Virus record (IMG/VR): IMGVR_UViG_2541047945_000005 | Length of the DNA stretch: 37,681 bases | Source: a virus | Lineage: Duplodnaviria > Heunggongvirae > Uroviricota > Caudoviricetes | Strand: one strand, 5' to 3' | Shown here: positions 4,099 through 37,681 of the stretch, piece by piece | Layout: every line of letters starts with the position of its first letter | Numbering within the stretch: the stretch's first letter is position 1 | The notes under the pieces: generated by a model | Told to the model about the DNA's origin: nothing | The model's database searches: none | What the model saw: only the letters and a program-made list of their open reading frames with translations | Program-made: the position numbers and the translations under genes

Positions 4099-4122
4099 TG
4101 ATATTAAAGGCGTTTAAAAAGC
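4099..4122 (-). promoter_or_regulatory. conserved late-operon motif, copy 1 (candidate late promoter/activator site)
   Basis: ctgATATTAAAGGCGTTTAAAAAg, one of four aligned copies upstream of minus-strand late operons. Confidence 0.5.
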
Positions 4123-4719: not shown

Positions 4720-5888
4720 TTTTTCTTCTCTCTTATTACTGTGGACGTGCTGCCGTCCGGTTTATAGATGGTCAGCATCCGGGTTTTGCCGATTTTTTTA
4801 CCTTTCTTCGCCTTGCCCTGTGTGATCGGCCCCCGTGCCACTTCCAGCTCTGTGGTGTAGCCGCTGTTACGGTCAAACGCATGGCGGGCAGTGGTTATGA
4901 GCCATGGCCCGGATAACTGCCCAAAACCCACCAGTTCAATTTTGTTGCCTGCTGTCAGTTGAGGTGTTCCCGTCAGCGTCAGGGAGCCGTTCTGCTGGTA
5001 TTCGTTATGTCTGGCCAGTGCTGAATCCGCTTTAATCCGGGCACTGTCCGGGTCGCTGACGCGGCTGTTAACTTTAAGTGAGTCAGCGCTGGTAACCTTA
5101 CCACCTTTGAGCTTTTTGTCGCTTTCACGGGTACCACCATCAGCTTCGTAGACGATCAGTTTTTTACTGCTGCTTTTCTGGTGTTTTACCTTTGCAGATT
5201 TATAGACCCGGTTGATGGTGTCACGCAGGGAAAAGCGGGCCACATCCTGCGGTTTTAACTGCCTGACCGGCTCCTGACTGCGCAGTGTGGCCAGATGAGA
5301 AAAAATCAGCTGGTCACTGACCACTTTCACTGCATAACCATACTCGCTGGCCAGCCGGCGCAGAAAACCCACGTCGGTTTCAGCATACTGGGTCACCCGG
5401 TCGATTCTGATGGACTCAATGCTGCCCACCAGTTTCAGCCGGTGCTTTCTGGCAATCCGCCCCGCAACAGCTGCCAGCGTGGTGTTCTCAAAACCACGAC
5501 TGGTTTTAGTCCGCAGGGCACTGTTAACCGAGGTGGCCACCCCACGGATAGAAACAACGGAAGCGGGCGAACTCACTTCGATCTCGTCTATAGAGAACGT
5601 ACCGCAGGACAGCAGCTTCTCGTCCTGATAGCCCATTTTCAGCGTCAGCGTGTCACCCTTGCCCGGATACCACTTATCCAGCCAGCGGCCATCGGTGTCG
5701 TCCAGCTCCACCTCAATGGTATCGGACTCATTTTTGATGTTATCGCTCCAGGTCACACGGGTGACATAAGGCGCGATATCAGAGGTGATGTTTTTCTGCA
5801 GATACCACAGAGTGAACACCGGTGTCAGCACATCGCTGACGCCGGTTAACGCTGATGTGACTTGCGCAGTGCTGTTTATCTCAGCCAT
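4716..5888 (-). CDS. baseplate hub / tail protein (P2 gpD-like, Mu gp44-like)
   Basis: 390-aa ORF between the X-like gene and the spike gene. Confidence 0.6.
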   Translation of the reverse strand: MAEINSTAQVTSALTGVSDVLTPVFTLWYLQKNITSDIAPYVTRVTWSDNIKNESDTIEVELDDTDGRWLDKWYPGKGDTLTLKMGYQDEKLLSCGTFSIDEIEVSSPASVVSIRGVATSVNSALRTKTSRGFENTTLAAVAGRIARKHRLKLVGSIESIRIDRVTQYAETDVGFLRRLASEYGYAVKVVSDQLIFSHLATLRSQEPVRQLKPQDVARFSLRDTINRVYKSAKVKHQKSSSKKLIVYEADGGTRESDKKLKGGKVTSADSLKVNSRVSDPDSARIKADSALARHNEYQQNGSLTLTGTPQLTAGNKIELVGFGQLSGPWLITTARHAFDRNSGYTTELEVARGPITQGKAKKGKKIGKTRMLTIYKPDGSTSTVIREKKK

Positions 5889-6091
5889 GGGGCAATATCC
5901 TCTTCTGTACGGGCTTCTTCAGCCTCAATCACCGGGATCAGTAACAACAGCCCGGAGGGCAGCACCGGCGTGATGGCCACGTGCGGATTGGCGGCAATAA
6001 TCCGGGGATAGCCCAGCGGGTCACCGTAGTACTGCCATGCCAGCGAATCCCAGCGCTCTCCGTCACGGGTAACATGTTCAAGAAACATCAC
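5876..6091 (-). CDS. tail protein X-like (LysM-like)
   Basis: 71 aa; R.GE.WDSLAW.YYGD resembles the P2 gpX family motif. Confidence 0.55.
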   Translation of the reverse strand: MMFLEHVTRDGERWDSLAWQYYGDPLGYPRIIAANPHVAITPVLPSGLLLLIPVIEAEEARTEEDIAPWLR

Positions 6092-10728: not shown

Positions 10729-10752
10729 GGATATTAAAGGAGATTAAGAAGA
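10729..10752 (-). promoter_or_regulatory. conserved late-operon motif, copy 2
   Basis: cggATATTAAAGGAGATTAAGAAg, about 52 nt upstream of the chaperone ATG; GC hairpin at 10754-10767 just upstream. Confidence 0.5.
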
Positions 10753-19187: not shown

Positions 19188-19207
19188 ATTTTAATCTGCT
19201 TTAGAAA
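19188..19207 (-). promoter_or_regulatory. conserved late-operon motif, copy 4 (upstream of the native start of gene I)
   Basis: gcgATTTTAATCTGCTTTAGAAAa, 56 nt upstream of the native I ATG at 19131. Confidence 0.45.
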
Positions 19208-22105: not shown

Positions 22106-23700
22106 CAGAATCCCTCCAGCATACGGGCCGCCTGACGACGACGGCGTGAGCTTGCCTTCACCGGCCCTTTGTTAATTTCACGGCTGGCGAAATACGCCAG
22201 CGCCAGTGCGATGGCTGAATCCCCGTGGCGTTTACCACCGTCAGCCTTTGCTTTTGAGCGTTGCTCCGGTACGCGGGGGACACCGTTCACCACCTGAACG
22301 GCCCGCAGGTCATCCAGTGTGTCTTCATCCTTTGGTAAGTCCACCAGGTTACCGTCTTCCAGTGCAGCTTTGACCGGAGGCATATGCTCCCGGTACCAGC
22401 CTTCGGTTGGCATCACCTGCTGAACCCGGCTGGAGCCGTAGCGCTGCATGGCGTATTCAGCCAGATAGGCACCATTACCACGGGCATCAAACGCTGCACC
22501 CAGCAGACCGGGCAGGCCATCCATCAGATACCAGGTGATTTGCTCCTGCTGTCTGAACGGCACGTTACGCAGCTCCAGTACGAATGGCACGCGTCGTACC
22601 AGGTTCTTCTCCTGCAGCAGGGGATAGTCCACCGACAAATCACCGCTACGGCCAAAGTCGCGCCCCAGGAAAGAGCGGGCATCAGTGGGGAGTGCCTCCA
22701 GCAAGGGTTTCAGATACTCATCAAGCCAGTCCTGCGTCTCGCGGAAGCGAACCTCATCAGACAGCAGTTCATAACCTTCCTTGCAGGTCAGACGCAATAC
22801 CGGCGTATCAGCGGACATGCGGGACTCTATCAGGGCACGGGACAGCCAGGCACCGCCACCGTTGGCCGGAATACAGTCAAGCTCTTCGGATGCGCCGGCA
22901 CCGTAGAATTTGTACACCGATGCCATCCAGGCTTGCTCGGATGCCTCCGACCATTCCTTCCCGGTGCGCAGACAGACGCGCCGGAACAGCCCCTCAGATA
23001 CGGCTTCCCGGAAAGTGATGCGATGTATGCTGCCTCCCTGACGTCCGGCACGGATATCCCCGATAAGCGTATTGAACGGATTGTCGTCACCGTCATGGGT
23101 GGAGATAACGCGTACCTTTCCCCCCCAGATAAGCATCGCCAGCGCCGCTTTCAGCAGTTCGTCCAGTTGCTCATGGAACGCCGCTTCGTCGATAACAATA
23201 ATACCCTGACGGCCACGCAGGTTAGACGGGCGGCTGGAGAGCGCAACAATACGAAAGCCGGAGTCAGGAAATTTGATGGTGTAAGTCTTGATGTGTTTGT
23301 CGTCGTCGTCCTCTTCCCAGAATCCTTCTTCAATTTCACTGGCCGCATAGTTGAATGCCCGTGCCCACATCGCACACGCCTGAATGTATTCGACGGTCAT
23401 GTCCTGGTTATAAGCGATGTAATACACATTCATCCCGCCTGCTGGCGCAGAAGAGGCGGCGGTCAGTACGTTATCGGATGCCTCAGCCCATGTAATACCG
23501 GTACGACGGCTCTTTTCTATCACCTTAAGCGGAGAGGTGTCTGCCACCCAGCGCTGCTGGTAAGGCAACAGAACGGGAGGGGCATCCAGCGCCGAGGTAT
23601 CAGGCAAAACGGGAGCAAGGTTATTCCTCCCGTCCATGGGACTCATCCCTTCGGGGCCGCCGCCAGCGGCGTTTAAAATCACTCCGGATGATTTTGTCAT
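22105..23700 (-). CDS. terminase large subunit (Mu gp28-like)
   Basis: 531 aa, upstream of the portal gene. Confidence 0.7.
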   Translation of the reverse strand: MTKSSGVILNAAGGGPEGMSPMDGRNNLAPVLPDTSALDAPPVLLPYQQRWVADTSPLKVIEKSRRTGITWAEASDNVLTAASSAPAGGMNVYYIAYNQDMTVEYIQACAMWARAFNYAASEIEEGFWEEDDDDKHIKTYTIKFPDSGFRIVALSSRPSNLRGRQGIIVIDEAAFHEQLDELLKAALAMLIWGGKVRVISTHDGDDNPFNTLIGDIRAGRQGGSIHRITFREAVSEGLFRRVCLRTGKEWSEASEQAWMASVYKFYGAGASEELDCIPANGGGAWLSRALIESRMSADTPVLRLTCKEGYELLSDEVRFRETQDWLDEYLKPLLEALPTDARSFLGRDFGRSGDLSVDYPLLQEKNLVRRVPFVLELRNVPFRQQEQITWYLMDGLPGLLGAAFDARGNGAYLAEYAMQRYGSSRVQQVMPTEGWYREHMPPVKAALEDGNLVDLPKDEDTLDDLRAVQVVNGVPRVPEQRSKAKADGGKRHGDSAIALALAYFASREINKGPVKASSRRRRQAARMLEGF

Positions 23701-24242
23701 GTGGCAATCCCCAGAATCTCGCGACGAAGCGCCTGTACTGCGTCGCTTGACAGTCCCCCCTTACGGGCAATTTTCTCGGCGTTGCTGGCTGCCTGCTGCG
23801 CTCTGGCCCGTACTTCAGACTGGAACTTTTTGAGGTTGACGGACGCGCGGGACAGCGTAGCCACATTCTTCGCCACCTTCGACAGCAGGGCCACGCGTTC
23901 TTTAGGATCGACTTCGCCTTCTTCCGCCTCCTGCAACTGGACAATACTCTCGAACAGCTCGGTCTGAATAAGGGCTATCACAGCCTCCGAACGCGCATCC
24001 TGATCGTCTGCTGCGCCTTCGGTCAGCATGCGGGCCGCTTCTGTTGCCGCACGGATAGCACCATAGCGGCGCTCAATCTTCTGTCCATAGCGATGGATAG
24101 CGGATTTGCTGATGACGTACCCCCGCTCACGCAGCAGGGACTCCAGCTCGTTATACCCGCTGAAGCCGGATTCAGTCAGCGCCCGTTCAAGCCAGCGGCG
24201 CACGTCTTCCGGCAGCTTTTCTATTGTGCTGCGTCTGGCCAT
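23697..24242 (-). CDS. putative terminase small subunit / DNA-binding protein (Mu gp27-like)
   Basis: 181 aa, basic N-terminus, precedes the large terminase. Confidence 0.55.
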   Translation of the reverse strand: MARRSTIEKLPEDVRRWLERALTESGFSGYNELESLLRERGYVISKSAIHRYGQKIERRYGAIRAATEAARMLTEGAADDQDARSEAVIALIQTELFESIVQLQEAEEGEVDPKERVALLSKVAKNVATLSRASVNLKKFQSEVRARAQQAASNAEKIARKGGLSSDAVQALRREILGIAT

Positions 24243-26252: not shown

Positions 26253-26603
26253 TTAAAGCCCCATCGCAACAGCCAGGCAGACCGCTGCAACAATCAGTGC
26301 ACGGCGGATTAACGCAGCAGAAAACACCAGGTGAAGGCCGGTCTGTACCGGGAAACGCCCTTCAGCCATCAGCCTGTCGTCATGTTTCAGGTACTGACCG
26401 GGACGGGCTTTGGGGAAGAGCGAACGGTCAAGCCAGTAACCCAGCACTGCTGCCAGCGTGATGAGTGCCAGCTTGTAGATCACAACAGGCAGCTGCTGTG
26501 GTGAGACCAGAGCGATGGTGCCCAGCAACAGCACTGAGGTCAGCAGCCAGCCGCTGAGGCGAGGTTTTTTAACAGGGGGAATGAATTTTTTCAGGTTTTT
26601 CAT
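26253..26603 (-). CDS. holin-like membrane protein
   Basis: About 3 TM helices; start taken at ATG 26603 with GAGGAG upstream (ORF track extends to 26651). Confidence 0.5.
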   Translation of the reverse strand: MKNLKKFIPPVKKPRLSGWLLTSVLLLGTIALVSPQQLPVVIYKLALITLAAVLGYWLDRSLFPKARPGQYLKHDDRLMAEGRFPVQTGLHLVFSAALIRRALIVAAVCLAVAMGL

Positions 26604-26651
26604 GTGTGTCTCCTCGTTTGGTGGAGACAGCATCACAAATACAGGGCGCAA

Positions 26652-26675
26652 AGGATTTTAAAGCGCGTTAAGAGA
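26652..26675 (-). promoter_or_regulatory. conserved late-operon motif, copy 3 (candidate lysis/late promoter)
   Basis: aggATTTTAAAGCGCGTTAAGAGa, 49 nt upstream of the holin ATG. Confidence 0.5.
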
Positions 26676-26733
26676 GCCGGGGATACGGGATGTGCAGGAT
26701 AAACGATGAATTATTCACAGAGGAGAATACGAT

Positions 26734-27210
26734 ATGACGCACACACTGAATCCGGTCATCACTGTCACTGTGTCCGGTCCTGTGGGCAGCGGTAAAAGTT
26801 ACGTACTGGCGCGGATAGAAGAGATGGTGAAACAGGAACTCGGAAACAGCGTCATTGTCGATGCTGCTGACGTGGAGAATGAGCGCCGTATGAATGGCGA
26901 AGATCTGACGACCTGGCAGAAGCCACGGGGTGGCACAGTGATCAGGCTAGAGGAATACACGGGACAGGGCCTGTTGTCATACGGCGAGGAGCGTATCTGT
27001 CGGACGAATGAGCTGCTGGATGTTATATGCCCCACGGGCCGGCAACCCTGGATACTGCCCGATGCACTGCATGCCACCATTGCGGCACTGATGACAGTTT
27101 ACGATCAGGAGCTGCTCATGAAGGAGTTACGTAAACTCACCGGTCAGCCAACAGAATGTTGTTCGTCTCCGAAGTACGGCAAACAGGAAAACGCCCCGGA
27201 TAATCCTTAA
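26734..27210 (+). CDS. small P-loop protein, possibly a kinase-like fold
   Basis: Walker A GPVGSGKS at residues 15-22, acidic VIVDAADVE segment after it; GAGGAG 7 nt before ATG. Confidence 0.6.
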   Translation: MTHTLNPVITVTVSGPVGSGKSYVLARIEEMVKQELGNSVIVDAADVENERRMNGEDLTTWQKPRGGTVIRLEEYTGQGLLSYGEERICRTNELLDVICPTGRQPWILPDALHATIAALMTVYDQELLMKELRKLTGQPTECCSSPKYGKQENAPDNP

Positions 27211-27229
27211 GATACCTCCTGAACAGAAA

Positions 27230-27245
27230 CAGCCCTGAAGGGCTG
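27230..27245. terminator. GC-rich hairpin between convergent genes (putative bidirectional terminator)
   Basis: cagccc-tgaa-gggctg; A-run on plus side, T-rich on minus side. Confidence 0.4.
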
Positions 27246-27247
27246 CA

Positions 27248-27829
27248 CTAAAAAAAGAAGTGTATTATTGCCCAAACAGCTATAACGATGATTCCCAGCC
27301 CAAGAGCCGATTCTAACTTATCTTTGGCAGTCATTTTTACTGTTGTAGCGGGCGCAGGTAAGTCTTGCTGCTGTGGATTTTCTGTTAGTTGTTTACGAGA
27401 AGAAACATCGCCCCTATTAGTTTGCTTCATGTTGATTACAGATGCGTTATGGGCATTATCAGCAGCAATTGACTGAAGTTTTACAAAAGTTTTTGAATCT
27501 GTTTTAGCCAGAAGTAACCTATTTCCCGTAAACATTGCCTTAAAAGTGATAGTTTTTTTCGTCTTGTCCGCCGCACCAAGCAAACCTCCAATGACCAACC
27601 CTGCACCACCAAAGATTAATCCACCAAGCAAACCTGCGCCTGCCGCCTTACCTATACGGCTTTCCTCTTCACTATCCGCAAGTTCAATCGATAAAAGCTC
27701 TTCTTTCAGATTTAATACAATATTTTCAGGAAAGCCTTGTTTTGGTTTTTTGGCAAACACGATGGTACCGAACCCCATGCTTGCCCACCCTTTAGGAAAA
27801 CTTCCTGCGATAACCTGAATCCCTGCCAT
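27248..27829 (-). CDS. glycine-zipper membrane protein with C-terminal anchor, unknown function
   Basis: GKAAGAGLLGGLIFGGAGLVIGGLLGAA and C-terminal LGLGIIVIAVWAIIHFFF; AT-rich; start taken at the third ATG (ORF track 27838). Confidence 0.6.
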   Translation of the reverse strand: MAGIQVIAGSFPKGWASMGFGTIVFAKKPKQGFPENIVLNLKEELLSIELADSEEESRIGKAAGAGLLGGLIFGGAGLVIGGLLGAADKTKKTITFKAMFTGNRLLLAKTDSKTFVKLQSIAADNAHNASVINMKQTNRGDVSSRKQLTENPQQQDLPAPATTVKMTAKDKLESALGLGIIVIAVWAIIHFFF

Positions 27830-27919
27830 GTTCATCACCTTTTACATTAAAATTTCAGAACGCAGCATGATGCCGCCTTTGTCTTTTTTCTGATCCCATG
27901 GTAATTCAGCTGTTATTTT

Positions 27920-28906
27920 CTATTTAAGAATAAAACGGTATTTACTGTCAGGAGTGCTTTGCTGATCAAGTAGCAGTGAACGACATGGAGCAGTCAAAAC
28001 CCGAGCATAACTACCATCAGGGCTTATGTTAATGTAACAAACCTTGCCCTTAACACTATAATTTTCGGGGACGGATGCCTTTGCTGATACAGTAAATTTA
28101 AGGGTATGCCAGCCCGTTTTTTGCTTGTAGCTTGAAACCGAATGGAAATCATCTGAGTACTTATTTAACCCTGGAAACATGCTGCGCAGTGCGGGGATGG
28201 AATCTTCTATTATTTTATCGTTGGTTTTAATGTTAAAAACGCTGGTTTCAGTAGAAGCTACTGCTTTGGCATTTCCCCATTTACCAGCGAACACAATCAT
28301 TCCCACGAAAAATATTGCTACAAGAACTAACACTCCCCCCAACACTACTACATGAGGCTTCCGGCTTCTGGTTGGTACAGTTGCGACTGATTTTGCACCG
28401 CTTTCCGATGGAGGTGATAGAGTTTTACTCTCATCACGAATATTCAGCAGATCATCAAAATAACCAAACACAGCCTGCAACTGCTCTTTGTCTAGGCCTT
28501 TAAGATGGGTTGTACCGAAATGCTTCAGACAGTATCTGTCACGGTCAAGACGATACCCAGGGTCAGTAAGCGCCATTATTTTGCTGACCAGAAGATTACA
28601 GTCCTTCATATTCTGGATCTGTTGTGCATATCTCTGAAGGATCTCAACCGCACCATGATAATCAGCCGCAGTCATTTCATTAACTGTTTTGGTATTAAGT
28701 TTCGTGTGGATCGTCATCCATAGCTCGCGCTTACTTTCCCCCAGATCAACCAATTCATCCATCAATCTGTGTAAATCGCGTTTTTGCAGCAACGAAATTG
28801 GTTGCTGGGCCGAAGGAAGTATGTCAGCAGAATAGTTATGAATGGTAACATCACCGCTGACAACGTTACCCACATCCCCGTTAACTGTTTGCTTCTCTTT
28901 ACTCAT
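27920..28906 (-). CDS. single-pass membrane protein translationally coupled to the repressor, unknown function
   Basis: 328 aa; one TM helix at about residues 176-198; ATGA overlap with the repressor stop; AT-rich. Confidence 0.65.
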   Translation of the reverse strand: MSKEKQTVNGDVGNVVSGDVTIHNYSADILPSAQQPISLLQKRDLHRLMDELVDLGESKRELWMTIHTKLNTKTVNEMTAADYHGAVEILQRYAQQIQNMKDCNLLVSKIMALTDPGYRLDRDRYCLKHFGTTHLKGLDKEQLQAVFGYFDDLLNIRDESKTLSPPSESGAKSVATVPTRSRKPHVVVLGGVLVLVAIFFVGMIVFAGKWGNAKAVASTETSVFNIKTNDKIIEDSIPALRSMFPGLNKYSDDFHSVSSYKQKTGWHTLKFTVSAKASVPENYSVKGKVCYINISPDGSYARVLTAPCRSLLLDQQSTPDSKYRFILK

Positions 28907-29364
28907 CTTCTCTTGGTATTTTTGTTCATTATTCCACCTGTTCCTATGGTTACGTTACCTTTGATAACATTCCCCAGAACATCTCCATGAATAACCTGTT
29001 CCGCCCGTTCTCTGGAGGAGCCAGTAGTCAAGGCCGACAAAACTGAACCTTTGACCTGTAATGGTGCCTGCCGGTAGTGCTGCAGTAACTCCATTTCATC
29101 ACGTGATAAAGTTATACCTGATGACTCCCCGGTAAGAATGAACTGTACATTGGCCCCAATTCTTGCAAAGGCTGCAAGTAACTCACCTCCGGGAACAGCA
29201 ACCCCTCGTTCATATTTCCCCCACATTTCTCTTGAAACGCCACAAAGGGCTGCTACTTCAGCCTGCTTGAGTGATAACCGCGAACGCTCAGCTTTGAACC
29301 GCGACGCGCAAAGAGAATCAAAATTCACATAAACCTCATTGACAATGAGAACAATAGTTCTCAT
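28903..29364 (-). CDS. CI-type (XRE-family HTH) prophage repressor
   Basis: HTH LSLKQAEVAALCGVSREMWGKYERG; divergent from the early operon; no LexA-like peptidase motif seen; alternative GTG start at 29328 with GAGG. Confidence 0.7.
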   Translation of the reverse strand: MRTIVLIVNEVYVNFDSLCASRFKAERSRLSLKQAEVAALCGVSREMWGKYERGVAVPGGELLAAFARIGANVQFILTGESSGITLSRDEMELLQHYRQAPLQVKGSVLSALTTGSSRERAEQVIHGDVLGNVIKGNVTIGTGGIMNKNTKRR

Positions 29365-36878: not shown

Positions 36879-37320
36879 ACAACGTCTTATCCAGCTCATT
36901 CATATTGCCCGTAATGAACTGGGTATGGATGAAGACACCTACCGCCAGATGTTACAGGGGCTGACCGGTAAAGCCTCAACCAAAGGAATGGATACCACAC
37001 AACTAAACTGCGTGCTGGAATCCATGAAAAGGAAAGGCTTTCGCGTTAAGCCTGCCGGAAAAGCCAGCTCCGGTTTACCGCTGGATAACCATCCGCAGTC
37101 CAGGAAAATCCGTGCGCTATGGCTTGAAATGGCTGCTGCCGGCATTGTTCGTGACCGTTCAGAAAATGCATTAGCGCGGTGGATCAAGCGGGAAACGGGC
37201 ATCAGCGCCCTGCGCTGGCTCAATACTGAACAGGCAAGCAGTGTTATTGAGAAACTGAAGAAGTGGCAGCACAGAGCTGCGGGAGTAAAACATGAGCGAC
37301 CTGAATCAGTTTCGAAGTAA
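36868..37320 (+). CDS. GemA-like protein (Mu gp16-like)
   Basis: Position directly upstream of Mor; AAAGGAG RBS. Confidence 0.5.
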   Translation: MMTKQRLIQLIHIARNELGMDEDTYRQMLQGLTGKASTKGMDTTQLNCVLESMKRKGFRVKPAGKASSGLPLDNHPQSRKIRALWLEMAAAGIVRDRSENALARWIKRETGISALRWLNTEQASSVIEKLKKWQHRAAGVKHERPESVSK

Positions 37321-37681
37321 AGGGCCGGAACTCCTGGTGGAACTGGCACAGCATACCTCTGAGACCGTTCGCGAGATTATTGATATTGAGCCCGCAATTG
37401 CCGACCAGATTGGTCAGGCCGTCGCGAACCGCATGATGCAGGTCTGGGGCGGGCAAAACGTTTATTTCCCGATGGGCATGGTATGGAAGGTCAGTCAGCG
37501 CGACCGGGAAATCTTCAGGGAGTTTAACGGACGTAACCACCATGAACTGGCCCGCAAATTTGGTGTTTCGCTTCAGTGGGTCTACAGCGTGGTTAAGCGG
37601 GTAAGAAAAGAAGAACTGGATCGGATGCAGGGCAAGCTATTTGCTGATGAACCCGATGTAGATACGGAGAAAAAAGAGTAA
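37292..37681 (+). CDS. mor: Mor-like middle-operon transcriptional activator
   Basis: 129 aa (the length of Mu Mor), C-terminal HTH (ELARKFGVSLQWVYSVVKR), last gene of the early block. Confidence 0.65.
   Translation: MSDLNQFRSKGPELLVELAQHTSETVREIIDIEPAIADQIGQAVANRMMQVWGGQNVYFPMGMVWKVSQRDREIFREFNGRNHHELARKFGVSLQWVYSVVKRVRKEELDRMQGKLFADEPDVDTEKKE

Follow-up and report, generated by a model that had tools for sequence, protein, structure and literature searches.

The stretch of DNA analysed here (the window) comprises the 37,681 nucleotides (nt) of the IMG/VR record IMGVR_UViG_2541047945_000005, and the element under study is a plus-strand gene (26734–27210) encoding a protein of 158 amino acids (aa) with a Walker A motif near its N-terminus. 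The window shares its gene order (structural and lysis genes, a variable region, repressor, Ner-like, IclR-like, DUF3102, rve transposase, ExeA-like, Gam, GemA and Mor) with Burkholderia phage BcepMu and Escherichia phage PhiKM (GenBank: Bcepmuvirus) and is therefore a BcepMu-like transposable prophage; the 3 kb around the gene are 100% identical to the chromosomes of Escherichia coli CE10, IAI39 and others. On the left, at 130 bp, lies the divergent holin gene (26253–26603, minus strand), which heads the lysis, terminase and portal genes, and on the right a convergent gene for a 196-aa membrane protein (27248–27838, minus strand). These coordinates agree with the initial annotation of this DNA, which had located the gene between the lysis promoter and a membrane-protein island and convergent with the latter. 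The region between holin and repressor is hypervariable. Within it the gene points away from holin and SLT in 23 of 24 IMG/VR BcepMu-like loci (the 24th lacks the upstream flank), the same arrangement beside the holin is seen in the loci L038, L040 and L047, and the position is kept across lineages whose transposases are just 48–55% identical.

The coding sequence begins with ATG, and a Shine-Dalgarno sequence, GAGGAG (26720–26725, plus strand), is read 8 nt before it, as expected from the strong ribosome-binding site (RBS) first ascribed to this open reading frame (ORF). The product (RefSeq WP_000149906.1) matched the profile phrog_3787 with E=2.1e-107 over positions 1–157 of 242, and the same family, annotated in PHROG as of unknown function, was recovered by all 34 of 34 diverse homologues of the window protein. 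Because of this match, of dN/dS values of 0.25–0.57 against relatives and of the intact reading frame retained in alleles as low as 47% identity, the ORF at 26734–27210 is a real gene under purifying selection. It is carried by 571 of 5426 complete E. coli genomes (about 10%), and 65 relatives (50% clustering) were retrieved when 1.84 billion representative proteins were searched exhaustively with a profile; together with the PHROG 3787 membership and the position kept in enterobacterial BcepMu-like prophages, these counts are incompatible with the label of orphan that had been given to the protein. PhiKM was the sole match in a tblastn search of the phage collection, and a profile scan of genome contigs, overwhelmed by generic P-loop patterns, returned two loci. 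No publication dealing with this gene or with the late promoters of E. coli BcepMu-like phages turned up in literature searches, and Rfam gave no match within the window.

In RefSeq the product is named "ABC transporter ATPase". An ATPase subunit of an ABC transporter would account for that name and for sub-threshold ABC_tran matches limited to the Walker A region, and for nothing else. The Pfam model ABC_tran (PF00005) reached 13.6 bits against a cut-off of 25 and the NCBIfam ABC models 11–15 bits against cut-offs of 266–875; direct reading of all 158 residues revealed no LSGGQ signature, and the neighbours are a holin gene and the genes of a prophage island, with no permease or binding-protein gene nearby. 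The chance that the name is right is practically nil and we consider it refuted, which corrects a misleading label on a gene present in about one of ten complete E. coli genomes.

The part of the protein that is widely conserved is restricted to residues 1–75 (26734–26958), the only stretch matched by nearly all 65 relatives, and it was delimited by remote profile searches, domain alignments and AlphaFold2 (AF2) models. This mini P-loop domain occurs either as the N-terminus of proteins of 47–364 aa with unrelated C-termini or as stand-alone proteins of 70–90 aa, and its predicted elements follow the order strand, Walker A, helix, strand, loop, strand. The Walker A sequence GPVGSGKS (residues 15–22, G15 to S22; 26776–26799), read directly and confirmed in the family alignment, lies between strand and helix as the GxxxxGK[S/T] of the P-loop superfamily does, and it is canonical (GxxxxGK[ST]) in most representatives, with GKN in three. 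In an alignment of 23 domain sequences G20, K21, I28 and E74 are invariant, and conservation reaches 90% or more at G15, G37 and E50. The initial description of a small protein whose Walker A motif near the N-terminus is genuine is thereby upheld, and the motif is conserved. Further conserved positions of the family include E50, R51, W61, P64 and E74, and the domain also contains a conserved [D/E]-x3-E-R segment. The acidic hhhhDxxD segment to which attention had been drawn does exist, as V40-I-V-D43-A-A-D46 (VIVDAAD, residues 40–46) after the predicted first helix, but D43 and D46 fall below 90% conservation in the same alignment and the segment is thus not a family feature. Glu74, whose codon lies at 26953–26955 and with which the third predicted strand ends (69–75 in the first AF2 model), would be a better candidate for a Walker-B-like acidic residue than D43 or D46.

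Comparison with known families led to the Walker A loop and no further. Neither Pfam nor NCBIfam contains a family that matches the protein at threshold, all P-loop matches are restricted to residues ~4–60, and different members of the family match different P-loop families, always just over the Walker A loop and the first helix. Thus no housekeeping kinase or ABC family claims the protein, an outcome that favours the initial annotation, for which a confident kinase assignment would have been adverse. A profile search of PDB sequences likewise gave motif-level matches only, including cytidylate kinase and designed "phosphate-loop" proteins. With the P-loop NTPases, of which ABC ATPases, cytidylate kinase (1q3t) and UreG are the nearest motif matches, the phage family has in common the strand-GxxxxGK[ST]-helix unit and, behind a further predicted strand, the acidic residue E74; unlike them, it has a domain of ~75 aa, three predicted strands, no match at threshold and no significant structural neighbour.

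The core of a P-loop NTPase is a three-layer alpha/beta structure that takes up some 130 aa or more and contains five or more strands in a parallel sheet. When AF2 was run with the 34 diverse homologues, the predicted local distance difference test (pLDDT) score was 93–96 for residues 11–70 and 53–78 elsewhere; a first model based on close homologues only had a pLDDT of 46 and was unusable, its strands being at 8–14, 41–44 and 69–75. Foldseek found no significant neighbour in the PDB (E at least 1.5) or in BFVD (E at least 0.67), and the three-layer core with at least five strands was not recovered by fold comparison. A three-strand unit of ~75 residues cannot form a complete canonical P-loop NTPase core. 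The phosphate-binding loop itself is clearly under selection, but the protein is at most a putative member of the P-loop NTPase fold class.

The layout of Walker A, helix, strand and acidic segment resembles that of P-loop kinases, and the protein could be envisaged as a miniature phosphotransferase, a nucleotide or polynucleotide 5'-kinase whose substrates late in infection would be nucleotides or the ends of DNA or RNA. Weak, sub-threshold matches to cytidylate, guanylate and uridine kinases and to Zeta toxin point in the same direction, although those to the three nucleotide kinases amount to 11–25 bits over the Walker A region alone. Some genomic contexts would also suit an enzyme of this kind: stand-alone homologues lie near a gene for a DNA ligase dependent on nicotinamide adenine dinucleotide (NAD) in two large phage contigs, L044 (where one small gene separates the two) and L046, and others are flanked by an HNH endonuclease gene and a small-terminase gene in prophages of Acinetobacter and elsewhere. 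The ligase adjacency, however, comes from apparently related phages and perhaps counts as one observation, and several further points speak against a kinase: the domain has ~75 aa against ~150 aa or more in known kinase domains, no lid or acceptor-binding region is recognisable, the proposed acidic residues D43 and D46 are not conserved and no fold match to kinases was obtained. A phosphotransferase is, on balance, rather unlikely.

A closer resemblance in size is offered by minimal phosphate-loop proteins (PDB 6c2u and 6c2v, and the de novo ATPase 9jix), in which a beta-(P-loop)-alpha unit is the main feature as well. Those are laboratory constructs, whereas the phage family is natural, is known from sequence and possesses extra conserved residues and partner modules. 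The designed proteins (PDB 6c2u) among the best profile matches count in favour of another explanation, in which the Walker-A-like loop is a non-catalytic binding or structural element. The protein would then soak up a ligand or bind other proteins as an adaptor, for instance in anti-defence, and the variety of C-termini would reflect an arms race. Simple P-loop polypeptides are reported in a preprint to display helicase-like functions (bioRxiv 10.1101/2020.07.30.228619), and this was counted in favour of the non-catalytic explanation. Mosaic and fast-changing C-terminal modules on a constant N-domain, and the GKN variants, which lack the Mg-coordinating Ser/Thr, would also be in keeping with it.

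The Acb2/Tad1 hairpin domain is that of anti-CBASS or anti-Thoeris sponges. Homologues of the window protein occur in accessory regions, and two contigs contain genes with this domain: in L049 the homologue is located in a lambdoid nin-type region, ~250 bp from such a gene (5663–5893), and in L044, a contig unrelated to L049, the distance to such a gene (180–596) is ~4.4 kb. Together with the ligase, HNH endonuclease and terminase neighbours described above, these contexts would suit an accessory function in DNA metabolism or anti-defence, though they are anecdotal. An orphan Dam methylase, of a kind that typically counters restriction, also accompanies the gene in relatives. Against a sponge or adaptor, PADLOC gave merely sub-threshold P-loop noise for the window protein, no known anti-defence family was matched, and the strong conservation of GK[ST] and E74 in most members is more typical of catalysis. 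A non-catalytic loop is accordingly a minority option, to which we would give some weight and no preference.

Beyond the mini domain, the window protein contains a helical C-terminal motif (residues ~88–140, 26995–27153, including PWILPDALHATIAALMTVYDQELLMKELRK) that was identified by BLASTP, by comparison with the C-termini of relatives and from predicted helices, which AF2 places at 108–122 and 125–136. The motif PWILPDALHATIAALMTVYDQELLMKELRK recurs at the extreme C-terminus of the longer relatives P0024, P0028, P0050 and P0055. A split version of this arrangement is found in L047, a distant BcepMu-like prophage in which three separate genes next to the holin (5001–6009) encode proteins of 88, 161 and 76 aa, the stop codon of the first overlapping the start of the second. 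The 88-aa protein is the mini P-loop domain (module 1). The 161-aa protein (module 2) is ~40% identical over ~160 aa (BLASTP) to the middle part plus C-terminal motif of fused proteins, and its end is homologous to residues ~88–140 of the window protein. The 76-aa protein resembles the tail (module 3) of a 247-aa E. coli form (37% over 35 aa, E ~1e-3 in a small local database). The modules are thus separate in L047 and fused into one 247-aa protein in E. coli, and because of this fusion/fission series the sequences indicate that modules 1–3 act together. Scans with Pfam and PHROG assigned no annotated family to the C-terminal modules, nor to a 71-aa gene found next to the gene in relatives.

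Alleles of 242–247 aa (PhiKM and many E. coli prophages), 182 aa (with an internal deletion), 158 aa (the window) and 141 aa were found. The PhiKM protein XRL29432.1 (242 aa), also encoded next to a holin gene, is ~92% identical to the window protein over residues 1–157; unlike it, the window allele stops after 158 residues, without module 3 (~85 residues), and consists of module 1 and the last part of module 2. The reading of the 158-aa form as a pseudogene cut by insertion of the island was rejected: an 83%-identical allele of 158 aa with the same stop codon occurs in a different context, the DNA homology between both alleles ending exactly after the TAA, and the 141-aa allele is likewise built of these two parts.

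With respect to expression, a 14-bp palindrome, TTAAAGCGCGTTAA (26658–26671), lies between the gene and the holin and is a candidate site for a Mor/C-type activator common to both divergent promoters. On its right, after 23 nt, follows a -10-like hexamer, CAGGAT (26695–26700, plus strand), from which a start near 26707 is predicted; on its left, also at 23 nt, lies GATGCT (26629–26634, minus strand), the -10-like hexamer of the leftward lysis (holin) promoter. The pattern TTAAAGNNCTTTAA has four matches in the window with at most 2 mismatches, against 0.62 expected. In a wider scan, which allowed 3 mismatches and required a downstream hexamer at the set spacing, four minus-strand sites composed of palindrome, 23-nt spacer and hexamer NAnnnT were located upstream of leftward late genes: 26658–26671 (GATGCT), 19191–19204 (CAAACT), 10734–10747 (CATACT) and 4104–4117 (AATACT). 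The palindrome at the lysis promoter is conserved in diverged loci, and rightward hexamers CAG[GA]AT at the same 23-nt spacing were detected in eight diverged lineages, L003, L016, L030, L032, L033, L040, L047 and L050, where the spacer sequences are divergent.

Late promoters of phage Mu combine a -10 hexamer with a dyad C site whose centre is at -43.5, and they have no -35 element (PMC2582627). In the window the centre of the palindrome lies at about -42.5 to -43.5 relative to the predicted start, a geometry that fits that of Mu, and the features of a Mor/C-type late unit are present in the sequence: a dyad site, a -10 hexamer without -35 element, and an activator encoded by the phage itself. 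The gene of this Mor/C-family protein (37292–37681, plus strand; Pfam PF08765 Mor, E=1.3e-43) closes the window, and the protein is presumed to act at the palindrome. The window differs from Mu in the sequence of the site, TTAAAGNNCTTTAA, and in that a single palindrome is apparently used by both divergent promoters. The DNA homology to Klebsiella phage KP12, which lacks the gene, stops at 26670, the right edge of the palindrome, and in KP12 as well as in E. coli SF-088, also without the P-loop gene, the same hexamer precedes another plus-strand ORF with an RBS, unannotated and of 107 aa. We infer from this arrangement a bidirectional, Mor/C-dependent late promoter whose rightward arm would drive a slot for variable cargo; in the window, transcripts would start near 26707 with a leader of ~26 nt. 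A by-product is a map of candidate Mor/C-type late promoters of E. coli BcepMu-like prophages, including this apparently bidirectional lysis promoter.

The 107-aa ORF (MTEPKQ...) lies at 1660–1983 of L050 (SF-088) and at 5336–5659 of L003 (KP12); both copies are equal in length and clearly similar, they are preceded by GGGGAGG as RBS, and in SF-088 the end of the ORF overlaps the end of an annotated convergent DUF2441 gene. On the holin side, an inverted repeat, GTCTCC-N9-GGAGAC (26608–26628), has the Shine-Dalgarno sequence of the holin as its second arm, and in diverged loci its stem is conserved and its loop variable. A hairpin that sequesters the RBS in the holin leader was considered; the predicted start, however, falls beyond the first arm. 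Since GTCTCC directly follows the -10 hexamer at both the 26658 and the 19191 promoters, it may be a promoter element rather than part of an RNA hairpin.

Downstream of the gene and on the same strand, 15 of the 24 IMG/VR loci encode a Dam methylase, usually after the 71-aa gene mentioned above. A transcription unit of relatives that ends in a DNA-modifying enzyme resembles the com-mom operon of Mu, as does the promoter itself; unlike com-mom, the enzyme is Dam and not Mom, and Dam is absent from the window. In most relatives co-transcription with Dam would make the unit comparable to the late com-mom operon.

The initial annotation had raised an independent moron or a third component of the candidate module; in such a case the gene would be expressed from the prophage and function in immunity or exclusion, with or without the repressor-linked membrane-protein island. 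The gene adjoins the island and is convergent with it, its orientation is opposite to that of both flanking genes, and the interval between holin and repressor is hypervariable, all of which could suggest cargo of this type. However, gene and island are each found without the other: the full island occurs in 97 complete E. coli genomes against 571 for the gene, about 470 genomes have the gene without the island, and about 30, such as SF-088, have the repressor and the 328-aa island gene without the P-loop gene. Among the 24 IMG/VR loci the island is present in only the six of the window type. The GC content falls directly after the stop codon, from 0.53–0.57 in the gene to 0.41–0.43 in the island, at the same point at which homology to the other 158-aa allele ends. 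The island, in turn, is tied to the helix-turn-helix (HTH) repressor gene, with which it is co-oriented and shares a stop/start overlap at 28903–28906; an arrangement like this is seen in BcepMu, where gp18–gp20 follow the repressor gp17.

Because of this mutual absence, of the break in GC content and homology at the stop codon and of the link between island and repressor, the notion of a third component was rejected, and the gene is genetically independent of the neighbouring island, which is separable from it and can be studied as a two-gene, repressor-linked unit. The idea of a moron fared no better, for the gene has the GC content of the phage backbone and late region (0.53–0.57) and a position conserved across lineages, rather than the atypical composition and sporadic presence of a moron, and its promoter has the geometry of late promoters, resembling the Mor/C-dependent type rather than a lysogenic one. 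Prophage-expressed cargo, alone or with the island, is hence very improbable.

Between the convergent genes there is indeed, as the initial annotation had pointed out, a GC-rich hairpin with a 7-bp stem (27229–27246; terminator scan, folding energy -14.3 kcal/mol, z=-1.9), but it is not clearly shared: since its T-rich tail lies on the minus strand alone, it reads as the terminator of the island and not of the P-loop cassette. It also lies outside the stretch homologous to relatives, which ends at the TAA before it.

Taken together, these data favour an accessory gene that is conserved by lineage in enterobacterial BcepMu-like transposable phages and is not a component of the island. Its product, a mini P-loop domain of ~75 residues followed by a short helical C-terminal motif, is proposed to be expressed late, to bind a nucleotide or some other phosphate ligand through the mini domain and to function together with partner modules that vary; we assign this proposal a probability of roughly one half. 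Transcription would most likely start at ~26707, from the rightward promoter on the activator palindrome common to the divergent lysis promoter, and the protein would be made late in lytic growth, alongside lysis and packaging functions, both the Mor dependence and the timing being deduced from the promoter. Within a small complex of several modules, the mini domain may be the subunit that binds the nucleotide or phosphate, with a putative role in a DNA-related or anti-defence accessory function.

Several points weigh against this proposal. CAGGAT is a weak -10 hexamer, with 3 of 6 consensus matches, and no promoter was predicted here by a generic scan for sigma-70 sites, as expected if the promoter depends on an activator. 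The link with Dam is not obligatory, for the window has the gene without Dam and KP12 has Dam without the gene. As GKN replaces GK[ST] in three representatives, Mg-NTP chemistry may not be universal across the family. DSSP assigns no beta strands to the confident AF2 model, so that the topology is unsettled, and all members of the family are known from sequences and models alone.

Tentatively, and with clearly less confidence than the proposal itself, it can be speculated that the N-domain is a natural minimal Walker-A fold for nucleotide or phosphate binding, which would oligomerise or dock onto its partner modules in a late DNA-related or anti-defence task. In any case the analysis delineates a phage protein family whose Walker A domain is only about half as large as the P-loop NTPase cores characterised so far. 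If the domain binds or hydrolyses nucleotides, the family would bear on the minimum size of a functional P-loop protein, and if the minimal-fold interpretation were true, it would be the smallest natural P-loop family and a living counterpart of the laboratory "P-loop prototypes".

Two minor observations concern other genes of the prophage. The 328-aa protein of the island (27920–28906, minus strand) resembles the flagellar regulator Flk in its N-terminal ~130 residues (NCBIfam PRK10715, E=2.9e-12, far below the cut-off) and has a predicted membrane segment; its gene is AT-rich (GC 0.41–0.45) and shares its stop/start overlap with the HTH repressor gene (28903–29364), and a 94%-identical copy is present in SF-088 with a different gene downstream. 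Finally, the DUF3486 gene (Mu gp27-like small terminase; 23697–24242 of the window, equivalent to 2298–2843 of L002) is recorded in RefSeq as a pseudogene with an internal stop in CE10, although the CE10 prophage is identical and the same coordinates of the window contain an intact ORF of 181 aa.

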